DNA of 63,715 nucleotides, filler included, from Stramenopiles sp. TOSAG23-2 (GCA_900128395.1; 11 parts of 11 records of this genome joined end to end with filler, not necessarily neighbours in it); one strand, 5' to 3'; shown: positions 24,390 to 33,846, counted from the whole stretch's first letter. The notes: a model not told the origin generated them from the sequence alone. Translations and numbers: made by a program.

Positions 24390-26812
24390 ATGGAATTTAT
24401 CCTCCAAGAAGAAGGACAAGAAGATGTGGAAGAAGATGTGCAAAATATTTTATTAAATAAATTTAGTATTGAAATGGGTACAGCATGTGTTTTATCATCA
24501 TATATTAGTGGTATTGTCGAAGATGCATATAACGATCCATTAGAAGCACGAGATTCGATCCAAACGTTATTAAATGATTCAATTGATGATAAAAATATGA
24601 AACAACATGTAAATCAATTTGCTAAAGCTTTAGTCCAACACCATGTAAATTTGAAAAAAGTAGAATTAAAAAATGCAAATAATTTAAAACAACAACAAAA
24701 TAATAAAAAACAATATGAAAGAATAACAGATGATGATAGAAAAAACATTAATAACAATGTAAACAATATTATATCACAAAGATCCTCTTCTAATAAATTT
24801 GGAAATAATATGATTGATTTAAACGACAACAACAGCAGTAATAATAATAATAATAGTAATGCTTCAACACGTAAAAATCGACGTAATAAAAAACGTGCAG
24901 AGAAAAAAAAGAAACAACAACGACGACAAGAGGGCAATGTGGATGCCACAAAAAATCCCCAACAATCAATATTAAAAGAAGGAAATAAATTCACGTTAGA
25001 AAAATATGACAAATTAAAAGCGGATGGGGATGATCTTGATGATTGGGGTACACAATGGGTGGAAACGAGAGAAACAAATGGAATTTGGGGTGGAAGAGGA
25101 CGTGGTGGCCGAGGAATCCAATTGAGAAACATTAATGATGAAGTAAATGATGTCATACTGGAAGGTGTTACGTTGGCATATGATGGAGAAGAATTATTAA
25201 CACGTACACGATTACAAATTGTAAAAGGGAAAATATATGGTTTAATTGGTAGAAATGGATGTGGAAAGTCAACTTTATTGAAAAAAATTAGCCGCGGTGA
25301 AGTTCCAGGTTGGCCAAATAGTGTTAGCGTAGAATATGTTGAGCAAGAAATTGATATTTCTAGTGATAAATCCGCAATTGAATTAGTTGTAGAAGCATCT
25401 AAAAAATCATTAACCAGGAAATATGGTAGTGTGGAAAATTTAATGTTTGAACGTAAAAAAAATCGAAGAACATATATCAGAAGAAAATGAAGAGGATGAT
25501 GATGATGCTGATACTTTAAATTTAATGATGGAACGATTGTGTGAAATAGAAGAAGCTTTGGCAGTTTTAGGTGTAAACGATGATGATGACGACGAAACGC
25601 AGAACAACAACGATAACAACAATAGTAATAGTAGTACAAGTAGGGTAAATATGGAAGCAATTGCAAATGCTAAAAAATTATTGTTACAATTTAATTTTTC
25701 CAAGGAACAACTTGAATTACCTTTAAAAAAACTTTCTGGAGGATTTCGTATGCGTATTGCCATAGCACGTGCAATTATTTGCAAACCTGATATTATATTA
25801 TTTGACGAACCAACTAATCATATGGATTTACATGGTGTCATCTGGTTAGAAAGGTTTATGAATAATTGTGTAAAACGAGGTCCAACTACAAAAAAGAAGA
25901 AGAAGAATAGTAAGAACAATTCACCTTCTTCTTCTTCTTCTTCTTTCTCCTCGTCTGGAATTTTAAATTATCCAAACTTTAAATCGATTATTATTGTATC
26001 ACATGATGAAAAGTTTTTAGATAATGTCATTACAGATGTTATACTTTTTTACCAAAAGCGTTTACAATATTTTGTTGGAACATATACCGCATATAAAAAA
26101 ATGTGTGATGAATCAGATCTAAGAAAACAAAGATTGTTGGAAAAGAAATCAGATGCAGAGAAAAAAGCCAAAGAATTGGCGGCAAAGCAAGCGCAATTAG
26201 TTGCAAAGTCAAAAAAAGGAAGAAAAGGCCATAGTTTTGATCCAAATAAACAGCGACAAGCAGCAGAAAAATTGAGAAAAGCGGAACGTGCCGGTTTCTA
26301 TCGGGAAGATGGTAAACGGTATCATACAATGTCATTAAAAGATATGAACACAAGTTTTTTACCAAAATCAATTTCTGTAAATGATTTAAGAAAAGATAAA
26401 CATTTAAGATTTAAATTTCCATCAGTAAATGCTCAAGAATTGAGATTAGCATCTCCTGAATCTGTGTTGATTAATTTAGATAAAATAAATTTCAAATATG
26501 GTGGTAACAACAACAATAACAACAATAATATGTACAAGACGAATGGCGAAAAAGAATATTTATTGCAAAACGTAACCGTGCAGGTCAATTTAAAGAGTAG
26601 AATAGCAATTGTAGGACCCAATGGTGCTGGGAAAACAACTTTAATTAAATTAATATGTGGTAAATTAACAGGTAGTAATAAAATTGATATAAATTCCAAT
26701 GCAAGAATAGCATTAGTTTCACAACATCATATAGATATGTTAAAAAACCATCTCAATATGTCCTCCACTCAATATTTACAACAAGAATTTCGTGATGTAA
26801 AGGCAACGGAAG
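24390..26812 (+). CDS. ABCF-family ATPase; frameshift in an A8 run near 25455-25462 and 3'-truncated by a chimeric junction
   Basis: Walker A GRNGCGKST, signature LSGG, DEPTNH, VSHD, second Walker A GPNGAGKTT; no TM helices. Confidence 0.85.
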
Positions 26813-29359
26813 CACAACAATGGAGCATTGGATTTGAAAAAAATGATCCAAGATTTAAAAAGTTACTAGAAAGATTTGATTTGAAAGATTCGACCCATAA
26901 TCCCACAACAATGGAGCATTGGATTTGAAAAAAATGATCCAAGATTTAAAAAGTTACTAGAAAGATTTGATTTGAAAGATTCGACCCATAATCCAAATGG
27001 CAAAAAGAAAATGGTTAGCATTAGTAATATCATTTCAACTGCTACTGGAAAATTAGCAAATGGTTCTGGTACGCAAATTTTACTTTCTGCATTGCGTGAA
27101 AAACTTGGTGATGATCTTCATAATGCAAAAAATGCTGAAAATGGGGAAGTTATGAAATTTTTCAAAGGTATCGTTGAAGATGATGAGGAGGATAAAGGTA
27201 AAGATATATTTGAACGTGCTATCGATAAACCGGATGAAATGAAAAATTTCAAAACGAAGGTACGTGAATTTGTATCAGGTTCTATGAACGAAAATGATCA
27301 AGCCAAAAAAGAGGAAATTCAAGTTGAATGGGAAAAAAGAAATCATATTGAATGGCCACATGATTACGATGATTTATTGATTTTCTTCGATACTGATGGT
27401 GATAAAAAGATTGTTTTAAAAGAATTTGCTCATGTATTGACAAAAGGTATGGTAAATTCAGTGGAGGAAAGAAATGCAGAAGCTGAAAAAAATGAAGAAA
27501 GAAAAGCGTCGAAACCATTACCGTTGAATGATGACGATATACCTGTAACAATGCCTGGCTTTTTAGAGATAAAATGTGTCAGTGCTGAAGCTTTGCGTGA
27601 CACTAGCTCTTGGAGAGACAAGGAAATGGATCCATATGTAAAGATCAGAGCACCTTGGAAAACACAAGCAAAATGCACGAAACCTGCTACTAATATGCAT
27701 ACGGAACCAAGATGGCAAGAATCACAAAATAATTTGCTTTCATTTGAAGTGACGGAGCAACATATTGCTGGTGGGCAATCGCTTTCAGAAATTACAATTT
27801 TCTTTCACGACGACAAAAGTTTAGCAATTGATCCTTTAGTTGGCAAATCAACTGTGAGTATTGAACGTTTCTTAACTGATAAAAAACTTGCAAAAACAGG
27901 TCGATATAGACGTATGCGAACTGAATTAGTTCATAAAGACGGTTCGAGCAGTGGCACGTTGAACTTAGAAATGCGTTTTGTACCAAAAGCTGGCATCATA
28001 GAAGAATCAAATGTCGAAGAAGAAGAAGAAGAAGAAGGAGCTAAAACGGAAACAAAAGTAGGGTCGCACGATGGTGATGAGACAAAGGAAGAAGAAGTTG
28101 AACCAAAAATGTTATGCCCAGGTATCTTCGCAATTCGTGTTGTCGGTGGAGTGAAGGAAGGGGTAAAAGAGGTAACGGATGATTCAAATTTTAAACTTGG
28201 TATAATTCCTCTATGGGCGGGACGCCGTGGGCTACAAGAGCCGGCATACCCAAAGAAAAAAAATAAAAAAGGAAGCCAGAAAAAGCATTTTTCTTTCCCT
28301 GGAGCCCTTGGTGAGGAAGCATACAATAATACAATTGATAATATCGGATTTAGACTTGAAATCGCTGATAAAGTCGGTTTTATGGGGTTTAAGAAATACC
28401 AACTTGCATATTATGGTACTATTACTAAAAAACAAATTATGGATGTGAAAAAATATAAAGAAAGATTGACTACAAAGTATCAAACAAAAGTTGATAAGGA
28501 CGGTGAGAGGAAGAAACAAGTAGAAGAGATGACTACCATTGAGGTGCTCTTATCTGCAGGAACCAAAAGTAAAAAATCGAAACAAGACGGTAAAAAAATT
28601 TCAATGAAGGTTGCTATCGATTTTCAACAAACTAGTGAGCAACCCTTAAAAGAGGAGGAAACAATCCTACCGTCGGAAGCGTTTGCTGATGGAGAACCGC
28701 CATCAACAACAGGAATATTGGAAGTTGAATTGATAGAATCAAGAAACGTAGCAGATCAAGATTGGTTTGGCTCATCCGATCCATATATCAATTTACAATT
28801 GCTTCCGACGAACAAAAATTTAAATAAAACAACATTAAAATTAGAGAAAAATAAAACAATGGTTTACAAAGACGCAGGTGCTACCGTTGAAATAAATGAA
28901 ACATTTAAATTTCCAATGTTTTGTTCCTCTCACCAAGATTATAACCATGGCAAAGGAAAAGAACGTGCTGGAAATTTAAAATTGAAAATGGAAATGAAAG
29001 ACAAAGATTTGATTTCTGATGATGCATTAGGTGTATTTGCAGAGAGTTTAGATGATTATTTAAAAGCAGGTGTAAAAGGTTTGAAGCTATTAAAACAAAG
29101 TCATTCACATTTCTATAAAAGTTTGAAAAATACGGATGACAAAAATAAACGGAAAACAACGTTGTGGTATAAAATTAATTTCATACCCGCAACAAAACTT
29201 ATAGAAAATGCCGTGAAAGAAAATTCAAAAGCGGGCAAAGATGATGCTGACAAAAAAGTAAATCCAACCAATAGGCTCATACAATGCTTAAAGGAAAGGA
29301 CTGGAAAATGCCAAATTTTGGTAATGGATGCAAATGTATATATATATATATATATATGA
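26813..29359 (+). CDS. C-terminal part of the multi-C2/EF-hand protein
   Basis: Begins with the same QQWSIGFEKNDPRFKKL sequence that ends 22317-23275; EF-hand DTDGDKKIVLKE; C2 domains with MDPYV and SSDPYI...DKDLISDDALG. Confidence 0.8.
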
Positions 29360-29845
29360 TATAGTAGGTGTATCGCTTTTAAACAAGATAGATAGATAGA
29401 TAAATAAATATTCGTTTCTCTCAAGATACAATGCTTAAAGGAAAGGACTGGAAAATGCCAAATTTTGGTAATGGATGCAAATGTATATATATATATATAT
29501 ATATGATATAGTAGGTGTATCGCTTTTAAACAAGATAGATAGATAGATAAATAAATATTCGTTTCTCTCAAGAATCTTATTATGTATACACTTATGTACA
29601 AGTTGTCACACACAGCTATTTCTACATATTTATCTTTTTNNNNNNNNNNNNNNNNNNNNNNNNNNNNNNNNNNNNNNNNNNNNTTAATTAATTAANNNNN
29701 NNNNNNNNNNNNNNNNNNNNNNNNNNNNNNNNNNNNNNNAATTCATCATAAATTTTCTCATCCATCAAAGGTATCAATGCTCGTTTTAAATTACAATCTT
29801 TAATTTTTTATTTTATGAAGAAGAATAATTAGTCAAAATTCTCTT

Positions 29846-30092: not shown

Positions 30093-30606
30093 TAGAAAAA
30101 AATGCAAATCTATTATTTTTAACCACAAAATGTTCTTTTTATAAAGAATAATAACTTTAAAAAAATAAAAATAACAAAAAAAAATTATCAATTTTTTTTA
30201 TTTTGGATGGCACAAGGCCACATATGGATGGATCAGAAGAATCGAACGAAGTACGAAGTCCAATAATATATACACGCGTAAATACTACAAATACGTTCTC
30301 CCACACTCACACACACACACACATTCCACCATACTTATTCTTCATCCATTATTAAGATTTGACAACTATATCATCAACTGCAATCACATCTTAATATATT
30401 AAATATAATAACAATAAAAATATTCAACACAACACGTGATTTATATTATATAAGAATAGAATTATAATAATTATCACAGACAACAAACAAAATCTAGGAA
30501 ATATCTATAATTATAATATATACCAATATATCAAGCAATATCATAGGTGTACCTAAAAACAATTACACACACACACACAGATAACATACCAACAAGATAT
30601 ATAATC

Positions 30607-33600
30607 ATGGAAGAAAATCATCGTGAATTTTATAGTTTCAATAATAATAATAACGAATCCATCAATAACAAGTTACAAAAACAAAGAAACACTACCTCCT
30701 CTCTCATCAATAAATTGATACCTTCCTCTAATATCATTGGAAATGGTAGAGCATTTAGCTCCCCATTTGGTGAAAGACATATATTATATGCTGATTATGT
30801 TGCATCTGGTAAAGCATTGCATTCGATTGAAAATTATATTGCCGACAATGTGCTTCCATTGTATGCAAATACACACACAACAGCTTCGATAACTGGTATA
30901 CAATCATCTGCATTTCGAAATGAAGCACGTCAAATCATTGGACAATCATTAAATGTTAATGTCAAAGAAGATGTTGTTTTATTTGTTGGTAGTGGTTCAA
31001 CAGCAGCTATTAATCGTGTTATTGGCATATTAGGCTTAAAAAACAATATTAATAATATCGATGACGCAAAGAAATGTGTCATTTTCGTTGGGCCTCATGA
31101 ACACCATTCCAATCTTCTTCCATGGAGAGAAACTGGTTCAACAATTGTTGAAATTAAAGAGACGAAAGAAGGATTATTTGATTTAAATGATTTAAAAGAA
31201 CAATTACACAACTATAAAGATTATCCATTTAAAATTGGTACGTTTTCATTGGCATCTAATTTAACCGGTATAAAAGCGCCGGAACATGATATATGTGAAT
31301 TAATGCATCGTAATGGTGGCTTAGTCTTTTTTGATTGTGCAACTGCTGGTCCGTATATGGATATTAATATGAACCCCGTGATTATTGGAGAGAAACGACC
31401 GTATGTATATAAAGATGGTGTATTTCTCTCACCACATAAAATGATTGGAGGGCCAAATACACCTGGTATATTAGTTATTAAAAAGAAATTATTATCAAAT
31501 AAAGTTCCAACGAATCCAGGTGGGGGTACGGTTTTCTTTGTTACTTCTAAAGATCATCGATATTTATCGAATAGAATTGAACGTGAAGAAGGTGGTACGC
31601 CTGATATTATAGGTAGTATCCGTGCCGGTTTATGTTTTCATTTGAAACATACTATTGGTACTGATACGATACATCGTTTGGAGCAAAAAAATTGGGACAT
31701 TGTTTATAATAAATTAAAAACTATCCCAAATATACATATATTAGGTGGTGGATTGGATAATCATGAAAGGTTACCAGTATTATCATTTCTCATTGAAGTA
31801 TATGAGAATAAGAAGAAACATTTTTTACATTATAATTTTGTTTGTTCCTTATTAAATGATTTATATGGTATTCAGTCACGTGGTGGATGCCAATGTGCTG
31901 GCCCATATGCACAAAGATTATTATCATTGACATATAATACTGCACAAAAATATGAAAATGAATTAATTGATAAGAAAGAATATTTAAGACCTGGCTTTAG
32001 TCGATTAAGCTTCCCATATTTTATGGAAACAATGCAAGTGGAATATATTTGCAATGCAATTACAAATATAGCTAAATATGGTTGGAGATTACTGCCATTG
32101 TATAAATTTATTCCCAAAACAGGTGAATTTAAACATGTTAGTCGTGTAACGAATTTTAAAGATCGAATATGGTTGTCACATATATTTAATGATAATGTCA
32201 GTGCTGGTGGTGCAAATTCTACGAATAGTAGTAGTAGTAGTAGTAGTAGTACTAACAACGCAGTGGTGTCTACTAGTGGTCAAAGTAAAATATGGATGGA
32301 AACATCATTGAAACAATCTATTGAAATTTTTAAAACTGCTAAAACAACTATGCGTAAAAATGCATCAAGTAATACTAATATTGATCAAACACAAATGTTT
32401 AACGATCCATCTATGCAATGGTTTTTAATGCCATCGGAAGCGAGAGATATATTAATGAAAGAAGATGATACTGAAATATTAAAAGTTGCTACAATGATTC
32501 AACAACAACCAGAGGAAGATATAACTATTATTAATCATAATAATAATAATATGATCTATCCAAAAAAATATGCCAGTGTTATTAATAATAATAGTAATAA
32601 GAATCTTAATAACTTAAGTGAAGCAGAGGAAAAAAAAGAAATTGATTCAATCGATAATATAATAGTATTGAAAAAACGTAAATTATCAGATACCACCACT
32701 ACTACCAATAATAATGTTATTGCAATAAGCAATAATGACAATACCGCTCCACAGAAGAATAGTAAACAACAAAAAATAGAGACAACGGGTAATGCTACCA
32801 CTACCACCACCGCCACCACCACCACCACAATTGCACGTAAAGTATCAAAAAAATACCCTTTGCGTAAAGTTGGAGATATTGAAGAAAAATCACAATTATT
32901 ATCAAAAGCTATTGATACGACTAAAACGAATTTAATTAAAAATACAAATGCAAAATTATTCCCAACACCACCAAAAAAATTAATGCGTGTTGTTGGGAAA
33001 GCAATTGCACAATGGGATATGATACAAGAGGGCGATCGTTTATGTTTAGGATTATCAGGTGGGAAGGATTCATTAGCATTGTTACATGTTTTACATACAG
33101 TTCAAAAAAGGTCTCCAAAACAATTCACACTAGCAGCAGCAACAGTTGATCCTGGTACAGAAGCATTTAATCCAAGGCCGCTAATTGGATATTTGAAATC
33201 ATTAAATATACCATATCATTTTCTATCTGAAAATATATTCGAACGCGCCAGTTGTGAAATGGAAGGTAATTCGATATGTTCATATTGTAGCCGTATGAAA
33301 CGTGGAACATTATATACATGTTGTCGCAAAAACAATTACAACGTATTGGTATTAGCACAACATTTAGATGATTTAGCTGAAAGTTTCATGATGTCAGCAC
33401 TGCATAATGGCCAAATTAGGACTATGAAAGCAAATTATACGATTGGTAAGGGTGATATACGTGTTATACGCCCATTTGTGTACACCCGTGAATCGCAATT
33501 GAAAGAATTTAGTTACAACGCTAAATTGCCTGTGATCAATGAAAATTGCCCAGCATGTTTTGAAGCACCAAAAGAACGTCATCGTATTAAAAAGATGTTA

Positions 33601-33846
33601 GCACAAGAAGAATCGTTATTAACTGGTATGTATGGTAATTTAAAACGAGCATTGATACCTTTGATGGATGAGAAAATTTATGATGAATTTAAAAATATAC
33701 AAAAGGAGGTAGATCAACGTGGTAAGAAACGTGTATGGGAAAGTTCAAAAAGAAGTAGTAATAACAATAATAACATCAACATCAGCAGTGGTAGTAGTAG
33801 TATTAAATCTAATTCAAACGACGGTGGTTCAAATAGTAAGAATTAG
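30607..33846 (+). CDS. ttcA: Fusion of a class V PLP cysteine desulfurase-like domain and a TtcA-type tRNA 2-thiocytidine(32) synthetase
   Basis: N-half: YADYVASG, HEHHSN, FDCA, SPHK (PLP Lys, 31429-31440), EEGGTP, RGGCQCA (31879-31899). C-half: MIQEGDR, PP-loop SGGKDS (33055-33072), CSYC (33277-33288), QHLDD, VIRP, CPAC (33547-33558). Confidence 0.9.
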   Translation: MEENHREFYSFNNNNNESINNKLQKQRNTTSSLINKLIPSSNIIGNGRAFSSPFGERHILYADYVASGKALHSIENYIADNVLPLYANTHTTASITGIQSSAFRNEARQIIGQSLNVNVKEDVVLFVGSGSTAAINRVIGILGLKNNINNIDDAKKCVIFVGPHEHHSNLLPWRETGSTIVEIKETKEGLFDLNDLKEQLHNYKDYPFKIGTFSLASNLTGIKAPEHDICELMHRNGGLVFFDCATAGPYMDINMNPVIIGEKRPYVYKDGVFLSPHKMIGGPNTPGILVIKKKLLSNKVPTNPGGGTVFFVTSKDHRYLSNRIEREEGGTPDIIGSIRAGLCFHLKHTIGTDTIHRLEQKNWDIVYNKLKTIPNIHILGGGLDNHERLPVLSFLIEVYENKKKHFLHYNFVCSLLNDLYGIQSRGGCQCAGPYAQRLLSLTYNTAQKYENELIDKKEYLRPGFSRLSFPYFMETMQVEYICNAITNIAKYGWRLLPLYKFIPKTGEFKHVSRVTNFKDRIWLSHIFNDNVSAGGANSTNSSSSSSSSTNNAVVSTSGQSKIWMETSLKQSIEIFKTAKTTMRKNASSNTNIDQTQMFNDPSMQWFLMPSEARDILMKEDDTEILKVATMIQQQPEEDITIINHNNNNMIYPKKYASVINNNSNKNLNNLSEAEEKKEIDSIDNIIVLKKRKLSDTTTTTNNNVIAISNNDNTAPQKNSKQQKIETTGNATTTTTATTTTTIARKVSKKYPLRKVGDIEEKSQLLSKAIDTTKTNLIKNTNAKLFPTPPKKLMRVVGKAIAQWDMIQEGDRLCLGLSGGKDSLALLHVLHTVQKRSPKQFTLAAATVDPGTEAFNPRPLIGYLKSLNIPYHFLSENIFERASCEMEGNSICSYCSRMKRGTLYTCCRKNNYNVLVLAQHLDDLAESFMMSALHNGQIRTMKANYTIGKGDIRVIRPFVYTRESQLKEFSYNAKLPVINENCPACFEAPKERHRIKKMLAQEESLLTGMYGNLKRALIPLMDEKIYDEFKNIQKEVDQRGKKRVWESSKRSSNNNNNINISSGSSSIKSNSNDGGSNSKN

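Follow-up and report, generated by a model that had tools for sequence, protein, structure and literature searches.

Can a eukaryotic cell thiolate its tRNA with a single polypeptide that holds both the sulfur donor and the thiolase? This question is raised by a gene at positions 30607-33846 of a stretch of DNA from Stramenopiles sp. TOSAG23-2 (GCA_900128395.1), here called the window, which comprises 63,715 nucleotides (nt) in total and joins 11 parts of the genome end to end with filler. The gene product combines an N-terminal module similar to cysteine desulfurases with a C-terminal domain similar to the bacterial tRNA thiolase TtcA. In the textbook picture, thiolation of eukaryotic cytosolic tRNA yields 2-thiouridine at position 34 (s2U34) and depends on Nfs1, Uba4, Urm1 and Ncs6. 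Judged by sequence, the gene belongs to a widespread fusion family with database annotations, of which it is a protist member without introns; its function is predicted from homology, and we estimate the probability that the fused protein acts as a self-supplying tRNA thiolase of the 2-thiocytidine-32 (s2C32) type at about 0.6.

The initial annotation of the locus, made from the DNA alone, held that no s2C32 was known in eukaryotic cytosolic tRNA, which is now outdated. In the parts available to us, a preprint dated 28 September 2026 (bioRxiv 10.64898/2026.09.27.754811) reports s2C at position 32 of Aplysia tRNA-Lys-UUU, the first detection in a eukaryote by liquid chromatography–tandem mass spectrometry, on tRNA whose modifications are of the cytosolic type. 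The enzyme proposed there is a 1177-residue fusion of CsdA (COG0520) with a TtcA-like domain (cd24138), with the lysine for pyridoxal phosphate (PLP), Cys448/Cys450, SGGKDS, the pattern C-CSFC-CPAC and a poorly conserved linker of 405 amino acids (aa). The fusion is reported across molluscs, with ‘birds and insects’ mentioned as data not shown; the authors of the preprint, using IscS for comparison, were unable to identify the catalytic cysteine, and they raised cleavage of the chain as an option. Our literature search for the fusion, including under other names, found this preprint only. Since it names the same fusion, the idea put forward in the initial annotation is plausible and has correlative support, was anticipated and is not new.

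Gene structure and domain architecture

A single frame is open on the plus strand from 30547 to 33846, with its first ATG at 30607. Positions 30607-33843 translate into 1079 residues free of stops (the coding sequence, CDS, ends at 33846 including the stop codon), and the uninterrupted frame of ~1080 residues noted initially is thus confirmed. At a GC content of ~31%, even over the gene and its flanks (0.30-0.32), about 0.078 stops are expected per codon, which by our own arithmetic gives a chance of ~1e-38 for an open frame this long. All five motifs quoted initially were located: SPHK at residues 275-278, RGGCQCA at 425-431, SGGKDS at 817-822, CSYC at 891-894 and CPAC at 981-984. Pfam recognises Aminotran_5 (PF00266; residues 61-477, E 3e-34) and ATP_bind_3 (PF01171; residues 812-977, E 4.8e-16). 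The protein is colinear with 150 fused homologues and every conserved block is present. Near its N-terminus an R6-x-F motif is almost invariant in an 18-sequence alignment, with R6 at 90% or more.

The N-terminal desulfurase module

The best match of the N-module in the PDB by sequence is SufS (8d8s, E 2e-24). An AlphaFold2 (AF2) model of the whole chain, built from a 98-row alignment, reached a mean predicted local distance difference test score (pLDDT) of 83.2 and a predicted template-modelling score (pTM) of 0.83. Foldseek placed its N-module on SufS and plastid Nfs2 with target-normalised template-modelling scores of 0.85-0.90 at ~21% identity; all 50 matches listed were SufS-type cysteine desulfurases, and none of them bears on the fold of the C-domain.

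Lys278 aligns with K226 of SufS and the corresponding lysines of CsdA and IscS, and Cys430 with C364 of SufS, C358 of CsdA, C328 of IscS and the cysteine of four stand-alone relatives. Together with His166, Asp243, His277 and Arg466 they are invariant between the window protein and SufS/CsdA/IscS. The comparison of RGGCQCA with the group II signature RxGxHCA, made initially, was borne out at the aligned place, where E. coli SufS has RTGHHCA and CsdA has RAGQHCA; the catalytic loop is as short as in group II, and the histidine of R-x-G-x-H-C-A is replaced by glutamine or another residue. Cys430 is likely the persulfide cysteine, to go by these alignments, with Cys428 as a second, highly conserved cysteine, and the sequence places the module as group-II-like and not as an orthologue of SufS or CsdA.

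Among 214 relatives of 880-1420 aa, SGGKDS was found in 203 and GGCxC[AS]G in 186; when 25 proteins failing the strict motif were re-examined, R-x-G-C-x-C was kept in 22 and the loop was not located by pattern in three. The 150 aligned fused proteins were chosen by motif, and the invariance of C428, C430 and SGGKDS in that set is therefore circular. Residues outside the selection are nearly as constant: K278 in 148, H277 in 149, D243 in 148 and R466 in all 150.

The module also exists on its own. Stand-alone bacterial relatives (~565-590 aa, 45-47% identity) occur in Bradymonadia and in a metagenome-assembled genome (MAG) labelled ‘Deltaproteobacteria’, and stand-alone eukaryotic paralogues in oomycetes, a chytrid, Micromonas, Balamuthia, Hanusia and arachnids. 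In the N-domain tree the stand-alone eukaryotic copies are interleaved with fused ones, lineage by lineage, a pattern suggesting that the gene was duplicated repeatedly and copies lost their thiolase half, or that gene models are incomplete. The oomycete stand-alone copies, for instance, are nested within the oomycete fused clade. Phytophthora nicotianae encodes a fused protein (P0012, F441_17268) and a stand-alone N-module (P0409, F441_17267), whose consecutive locus tags suggest a tandem duplication.

The linker region

A linker of ~260 aa rich in Asn, Thr and Ser had been described between the two domains. Its composition was correctly described (residues 530-785: T 13%, N 13%, S 11%), but residues 556-633 are conserved and belong to a folded extension of the desulfurase. 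They are predicted as confident helices in the AF2 model and carry an LRWFxxPSEA island (QWFLMPSEA in the window protein). Of the 150 fused proteins, 148 keep W605 of this island and 140 keep F606. The same LRWF..P.EA tail ends the bacterial stand-alone relatives P0465 and P0480. Because this segment is helical and its island is common to bacterial stand-alone relatives, we count it as part of the desulfurase module, which carries a C-terminal extension of ~150 residues (~478-633) relative to SufS/CsdA/Nfs2. The truly variable stretch is restricted to residues ~634-757 (column conservation 0.06-0.25). Two short conserved islands stand out in the linker, YPKKY at 651-655 (P652 in 135/150) and KYPLR at 749-753.

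A fixed arrangement of the two domains would agree with the pTM of the whole-chain model. Prediction of a complex between N-module 40-615 and C-domain 786-1048, made without alignments, scored 0.00, a value that speaks neither for docking nor against it.

The C-terminal TtcA-like domain

Among NCBIfam hidden Markov models, TtcA (NF007972) is the top match of the C-domain (193 bits, E 6.6e-57, residues 786-1045), followed by TilS with 62, TtuA with 42.7 (cut-off 450) and NcsA with 28.5 bits (cut-off 500), so that the scores favour the original preference for TtcA over Ncs6, TtuA and TilS. SGGKDS is aligned with the PP-loop of E. coli TtcA, CSYC with its CSLC (Cys122/Cys125) and CPAC with its CNLC. 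Conservation of the cysteines extends over the 150 fused proteins (C891 in 147, C894 in 146, C981 in 139 and C984 in 137). Terminal CxxC zinc fingers define the Ncs6/TtuA family. The cysteines of the C-domain are solely 813, 883, 891, 894, 905, 906, 981 and 984, which leaves no terminal CxxC pairs; their absence had already been remarked.

According to the available text of a study of the E. coli enzyme (Bouvier et al. 2014, PMC4081106), activity depends on a [4Fe-4S] cluster bound by Cys122, Cys125 and ‘Cys222’, all three of them essential; ATP and IscS-derived sulfur are required as well, and dithiothreitol (DTT) is needed in vitro. That paper numbers the cysteines 46, 122, 125, 200, 219 and 222. 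In the RefSeq protein (L086:11014-11949, 311 aa) they stand at 45, 122, 125, 191, 210 and 213, and since the offset is not constant the residue numbers of the paper cannot be mapped directly. By motif spacing, ‘Cys222’ would correspond to the second cysteine of CNLC, i.e., RefSeq Cys213.

With the C-domain as query, eukaryotic fragments were retrieved first and then bacterial proteins of ~245-260 aa with 55-60% identity, some labelled TtcA, from Chromatiales, Thermithiobacillus, Thiotrichaceae and other Gammaproteobacteria; direct alignment gave 54-55% identity to such ~250-aa proteins. A scan of species-representative genomes, biased through its seeding by exact peptides, yielded 78 loci with 48-59% identity, almost all from sulfur-oxidising Gammaproteobacteria. 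In five of five gammaproteobacterial genomes the short type was the only TtcA-family match above 200 bits, two of them having an extra match of ~25 bits. Among 81 sampled Pseudomonadota genomes, 22 had the E. coli type (>272 bits), three the short ~250-aa type (196-216 bits) and none had both, as expected of two isofunctional forms. The curated TtcA equivalog model misses the short type.

Trees were made for each domain separately, as initially suggested. The maximum-likelihood tree of C-domains comprised 96 rows (43 fused eukaryotic, 28 short bacterial, 23 from a phylum sample, E. coli TtcA and, as outgroup, E. coli TilS); it came from a quick search with support by the Shimodaira–Hasegawa-like approximate likelihood ratio test (SH-aLRT) only, and its rooting on TilS (branch length 10) is unreliable. 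All 43 fused C-domains formed one clade (SH-aLRT 98) among the short bacterial forms. E. coli-type TtcA was a separate clade on a long stem, and the fused C-domains lay away from E. coli TilS. The window protein was sister to the metagenomic P0004, and the pair in turn to oomycetes. The surrounding clade of 18 rows (support 97) contained named stramenopiles, several unnamed rows and Euglena.

One of the 78 loci, L040, was the only one with a tblastn match to the N-module and was dropped, because the fused gene there is of eukaryotic type and interrupted by introns, although the MAG carries the label ‘uncultured Verrucomicrobiota’. At L040:5400-8800 a homologue of the N-module in frame-shifted pieces is followed by a TtcA-like open reading frame (ORF; 50% identity), and one exon reads FLHYNYVCALLNDVFGIQSRGGCQCSGPY. 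This contig is probably a mis-binned eukaryotic one.

The fusion family across eukaryotes

A length-matched protein search gave 900 matches, with both Pfam domains in nearly all of the best 120, and a search of 50%-identity representatives added about a hundred further fused clusters. About 200 fused homologues exist, several as complete ORFs of transcriptome assemblies, and the supposition that similar fusions are annotated in other eukaryotes was well founded. They include oomycetes (Phytophthora, Pythium, Aphanomyces, Saprolegnia, Albugo), labyrinthulids (Hondaea, Mucochytrium) and other stramenopiles (Pylaiella, Chrysoparadoxa, Paraphysomonas), so that brown algae are represented. Other protists with the fusion are Rhodelphis marinus, Chromera velia, Besnoitia besnoiti and a euglenid (EukProt EG_transcript_1552, taken as Euglena gracilis). 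Among animals it was found in Penaeus shrimps, the fluke Opisthorchis viverrini, the sea star Patiria miniata and the sponge Oscarella lobularis, in some cases in chromosome-scale assemblies. Sequence comparison thus depicts the family as pan-eukaryotic, with a monophyletic C-domain.

Beyond a 1084-aa protein (P0002) that is independent of the window and 99% identical to its product, the closest relatives are P0003 and P0004, with 53-54% identity overall (BLASTP). Both have an extra Thioredoxin_8 domain with WCPPC, C-terminal to the TtcA domain (residues 1030-1138 and 1010-1127, respectively). In 11 of 207 fused proteins (P0074, P0079, P0081, P0082, P0087, P0088, P0099, P0112, P0120, P0122 and P0145) a conserved Cys-rich tail, C-x(5-7)-x-C-x-x-C-x-E-[LI]-x, ends the chain. 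It occurs in Paraphysomonas, Chrysoparadoxa and Pylaiella among others (e.g., ...C-x5-7-Y-C-[VPA]-[PA]-C-[YF]-E-L-A) and may be a redox or metal site. The window protein, unlike some of its relatives, has neither the thioredoxin domain nor the Cys-rich tail; it ends in Ser/Asn low complexity, and the downstream neighbour of its gene is on the opposite strand.

Residency and expression

Flanking ORFs have eukaryotic domains, namely C2, zf-PARP, WW with ankyrin, ABC transporter, Zn2Cys6, ODAD1, SNF2 with RING and HIRAN, PRELI with ACBP, and cNMP-binding. The gene stretch was found in DNA contigs of many marine runs, 14 of which contained at least half of the sampled words, and also in six RNA-library runs. 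Contigs of four RNA runs, from three studies, were compared with the gene. They tile 30405-33827: 30405-31766, 31759-32189 and 32187-32453 in run X15, 32151-32503, 32480-33118 and 33120-33601 in run X17 (oligo-dT), and 33335-33827 in run X16. The initial annotation had pointed to coverage of the linker as a check on the fusion, and the X17 contig 32480-33118 bridges it, from residue ~625 through the variable part to past the PP-loop motif. No credible splice joint was seen in the RNA-library contigs over the gene; three joints (skips of 808, 31 and 1182 nt) were judged false, with sides of 20-21 nt, low complexity and no GT..AG ends.

Given the eukaryotic neighbours, the RNA contigs tiling the linker and the ~200 fused homologues, the gene is resident, as supposed initially from composition, which is uniform, and the fusion is no chimera; that both are genuine is virtually certain. 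The host is a marine, probably stramenopile-related protist, and the gene is a nuclear one.

Features of the gene and its surroundings

The features of the gene are collected in Table 1.

Table 1 Features of the fused desulfurase–TtcA gene, in window coordinates
Feature	Position	Strand	Basis or remark
Intronless fused desulfurase–TtcA CDS (P0001)	30607..33846	+	1079 codons + stop, single exon
Variable N-rich N-terminal segment, aa 1-40	30607..30726	+	N 25%; pLDDT <50 for residues 1-16
Class-V PLP cysteine-desulfurase-like core, aa 41-528	30727..32190	+	PF00266, SufS/Nfs2-like fold, pLDDT mostly >90
Lys278 in SPHK, predicted PLP Schiff-base lysine	31438..31440	+	Aligns with SufS K226 (SGHKL) and CsdA, IscS lysines
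Cys428-x-Cys430 in RGGCQCA; Cys430 predicted persulfide cysteine	31888..31896	+	Alignment with SufS/CsdA/IscS
Poly-Ser/Asn low-complexity insert, aa 529-555	32191..32271	+	pLDDT <50 for 534-552; alignment occupancy 0.45
Conserved helical extension of N-module, aa 556-633	32272..32505	+	pLDDT 84-97 for most; QWFLMPSEA island 604-612
Variable, probably disordered T/N/K-rich linker, aa 634-757	32506..32877	+	pLDDT <50 at 642-645, 658-665, 688-748
TtcA-like PP-loop ATP-pyrophosphatase domain, aa 758-1045 (HMM match 786-1045)	32878..33741	+	NF007972, PF01171, tree; pLDDT mostly >90
PP-loop SGGKDS, aa 817-822, predicted ATP binding/adenylation	33055..33072	+	Aligned with E. coli TtcA SGGKDS
CSYC, Cys891/Cys894, predicted [4Fe-4S] ligands	33277..33288	+	Aligned with E. 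coli TtcA CSLC (Cys122/Cys125)
CPAC, Cys981/Cys984; Cys984 predicted third cluster ligand	33547..33558	+	Matches CNLC of E. coli TtcA in the alignment
S/N low-complexity C-terminal tail, aa 1046-1079	33742..33843	+	S 38%, N 29%; pLDDT <50 for 1058-1079

Two (CA)n microsatellites lie 5' of the start codon, at 30306-30325 and 30567-30581. An RNA-library contig (X15) reaches at least to 30405, and part of this upstream region may therefore be 5' untranslated region. Elsewhere in the window, two plus-strand ORFs 35 nt apart (24390-25490 and 25525-26928) match ABC_tran (E 3.2e-8 and 1.2e-24, respectively); a short intron or a frameshift probably splits what is a single ABC-transporter gene. In a minus-strand ORF at 29113-29613 a segment of ~55 residues is present twice (…RETNIYLSIYLSCLKAIHLLYHIYIYIYTFASITKIWHFPVLSFKHC…), indicating that the DNA is directly repeated in tandem immediately downstream of the gene with the C2 domain. 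The window holds no tRNA gene.

Proposed mechanism and its alternatives

We propose that the N-module binds PLP on Lys278 and moves sulfur from free L-cysteine onto Cys430 as a persulfide, and that Cys428 may serve as a relay. In the C-domain, Cys891, Cys894 and Cys984 would coordinate a [4Fe-4S] cluster, one iron of which stays free, and the SGGKDS PP-loop would adenylate C2 of a tRNA pyrimidine, most likely that of cytidine 32. Sulfur that reaches this iron within the chain, or from the other subunit of a dimer, could then attack the adenylated base and yield s2C. The fusion would replace the separate IscS donor of bacteria and operate independently of the Urm1/Uba4/Ncs6 route and with no acceptor of the SufE type, the Fe-S cluster and the reductant still being supplied by the cell. 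The thioredoxin-like domain appended in the two closest relatives may provide the reductant; a need for a dithiol reductant fits both this Thioredoxin_8 domain in P0003/P0004 and the DTT requirement of E. coli TtcA. A cytosolic location is weakly suggested by the R-x-F at the N-terminus, by the presence of the gene in plastid-lacking lineages and by the cytosolic-type modifications of the Aplysia tRNA. The more specific proposal of an ancient eukaryotic fusion, with a single origin of its C-domain, that makes s2C32 or a related thio-base without Nfs1/IscS, a SufE-type acceptor or Urm1 by delivering sulfur from Cys430 (via Cys428) to the open iron, is tentative and falls a little short of an even chance.

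Several observations weigh against the assignment as a self-supplying s2C32-type thiolase. On the thiolase side, the TtcA score of 193 bits lies below the curated equivalog cut-off of 272 (the short bacterial proteins likewise reach just 201-220 bits on this model), identity to E. coli TtcA, the sole characterised enzyme compared, is 29%, and the tree left out TtuA and Ncs6 sequences. On the donor side, the N-module scores 124.8 bits on SufS (cut-off 475) and 45.7 on CsdA (cut-off 494), and the N-modules form a clade of their own, with 100% support and a long stem. A desulfurase of group II normally depends on an acceptor, e.g., SufE, SufU or CsdE, and a Pfam scan found no SufE/SufU/CsdE acceptor domain in the window protein. 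As to coupling, tblastn found an N-module homologue within 8 kb of the TtcA-like gene in none of 77 bacterial loci, which provides no operon precedent. In the accessible parts of the preprint, s2C32 and the fusion are linked in Aplysia by co-occurrence only. Finally, none of the RNA contigs of the four runs spans both domains, and metatranscriptome libraries may include DNA, which makes the RNA evidence supportive and not decisive.

The alternative that survives best keeps the architecture and the chemistry and changes the target, to another position or base, e.g., a uridine, or to a substrate other than tRNA. It would suit the separation of the eukaryotic clade from the E. coli type, with low identity, a score below the cut-off and a long intervening branch. 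The ligand pattern is also the one by which TtuA and NcsA, related PP-loop Fe-S enzymes, make s2U (PDB matches 6scy and 5mko), and the tRNA-Lys-UUU reported for Aplysia in the preprint is unlike the Arg and Ser substrates of E. coli. TtcA is, however, by far the top-scoring family; the nearest bacterial relatives, each the sole strong TtcA match (>200 bits) of its genome, and the E. coli type replace one another between genomes, as isofunctional enzymes would; and, according to the same preprint, s2C32 occurs in an animal carrying the fusion. We consider a different target unlikely.

Quite improbable, in our estimate, is that the N-module is not the direct donor of sulfur to the nucleoside and instead builds or repairs the cluster, acts as a selenocysteine or other C-S lyase, or has an independent role, the fusion serving co-expression or being cleaved. 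The many stand-alone members in eukaryotes and bacteria show that the module also exists without TtcA, its scores fall outside the curated limits of SufS and CsdA, it has no acceptor domain, SufS-type enzymes are also selenocysteine lyases (PDB titles 1jf9 and 1kmk), and cleavage is the option raised in the preprint. The catalytic Lys, Cys, His, Asp and Arg are nevertheless kept in nearly all of the 150 fused proteins. Moreover, fusions of desulfurases to domains of the ThiI, MnmA and PAPS_reduct type recur independently in prokaryotes (leads only), in keeping with a pairing of donor and acceptor. A chimeric assembly, or a host gene to which contaminating bacterial DNA was joined, might be suspected from the missing joint RNA contig and the unusual similarity (50-60%) of the C-domain to gammaproteobacterial proteins. 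The chance of this is negligible in view of P0002, the DNA contigs of 14 runs, the RNA contigs tiling the junctions, the uniform GC and, decisively, the ~200 colinear fused homologues, which include transcriptome ORFs and genes in chromosome-scale animal assemblies and for practical purposes exclude a chimera.

Implications

If the proposed function is true, a desulfurase–TtcA enzyme is a second and mechanistically different route of tRNA thiolation in eukaryotes, and s2C is a eukaryotic modification. It would be widespread and overlooked in stramenopiles, alveolates including coccidian parasites, euglenids and many invertebrates, and could have been missed because the standard model-organism lineages may lack the gene. 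Beyond what is in print, the present analysis adds the pan-eukaryotic spread of the family, the tie of its thiolase half to the ~250-aa bacterial type of TtcA, Cys430 as the likely persulfide cysteine and a desulfurase module redefined to include the helical extension. Our list of taxa may overlap with the supplementary list of fused homologues in the preprint. The redox add-ons of some relatives, the thioredoxin domain and the Cys-rich tail, hint at how the catalytic cycle might be closed, and the protist gene, which has no introns, lends itself to expression and to the study of direct sulfur transfer in cis by a group-II-like desulfurase that works with no acceptor protein.

Comparison with known systems

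With Ncs6/Ctu1/NcsA/TtuA the window domain shares the PP-loop superfamily and Fe-S chemistry, and weak PDB matches were obtained (6scy, E 1e-7; 3vrh and 5mko, E 3e-5). These families differ in far lower scores of their models on the window domain and in the terminal CxxC pairs, which the window protein is without; moreover, no carrier of the Urm1/TtuB type is implied here. SufS, CsdA and Nfs2 have in common with the N-module the PLP lysine, the histidine of EHH(S/A)N, Asp243, Arg466 and a cysteine in a short R-x-G-x-x-C-A loop, whereas identity is ~21-24% and the N-module has an extra cysteine two residues before the catalytic one.

The joining of a desulfurase to a sulfur-insertion domain of the ATP-pyrophosphatase type has parallels in prokaryotic fusions of Aminotran_5 with ThiI-, MnmA- or PAPS_reductase-like domains. 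Those come from Bacillota, Myxococcota and Methanobacteriota and differ in the partner domain; they were obtained as language-model neighbours in Atlas clusters (scores 0.83-0.87) and serve as leads only.

E. coli TtcA (b1344) shares SGGKDS, both CxxC motifs and the top HMM family with the C-domain, and its [4Fe-4S] cluster is the mechanistic model. Unlike the fused enzyme it is a stand-alone protein of 311 aa that depends on separate IscS and IscU, and it has a C-terminal extension missing from the window domain. The short (~245-260 aa) TtcA-like proteins of Thioalkalivibrio, Guyparkeria, Thiotrichales and others have the NENCPACF and DLAESF blocks in common with the C-domain, and differ in being stand-alone; they are known here from sequences.

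The closest counterpart is the Aplysia ‘IscS-TtcA’ (LOC101861551), which, as described in the available parts of the preprint, has the same order of CsdA-type desulfurase, poorly conserved linker and TtcA-like domain, the same PLP lysine, SGGKDS and C-CS[FY]C-CPAC, and in Cys448/Cys450 the equivalents of Cys428/Cys430. It is longer (1177 aa), with introns and a 405-aa linker, whereas the gene in the window is intronless, encodes 1079 aa and belongs to a protist. The two genes are presumably orthologous, as Penaeus, Opisthorchis and Patiria fall into the same C-domain clade as the window protein.

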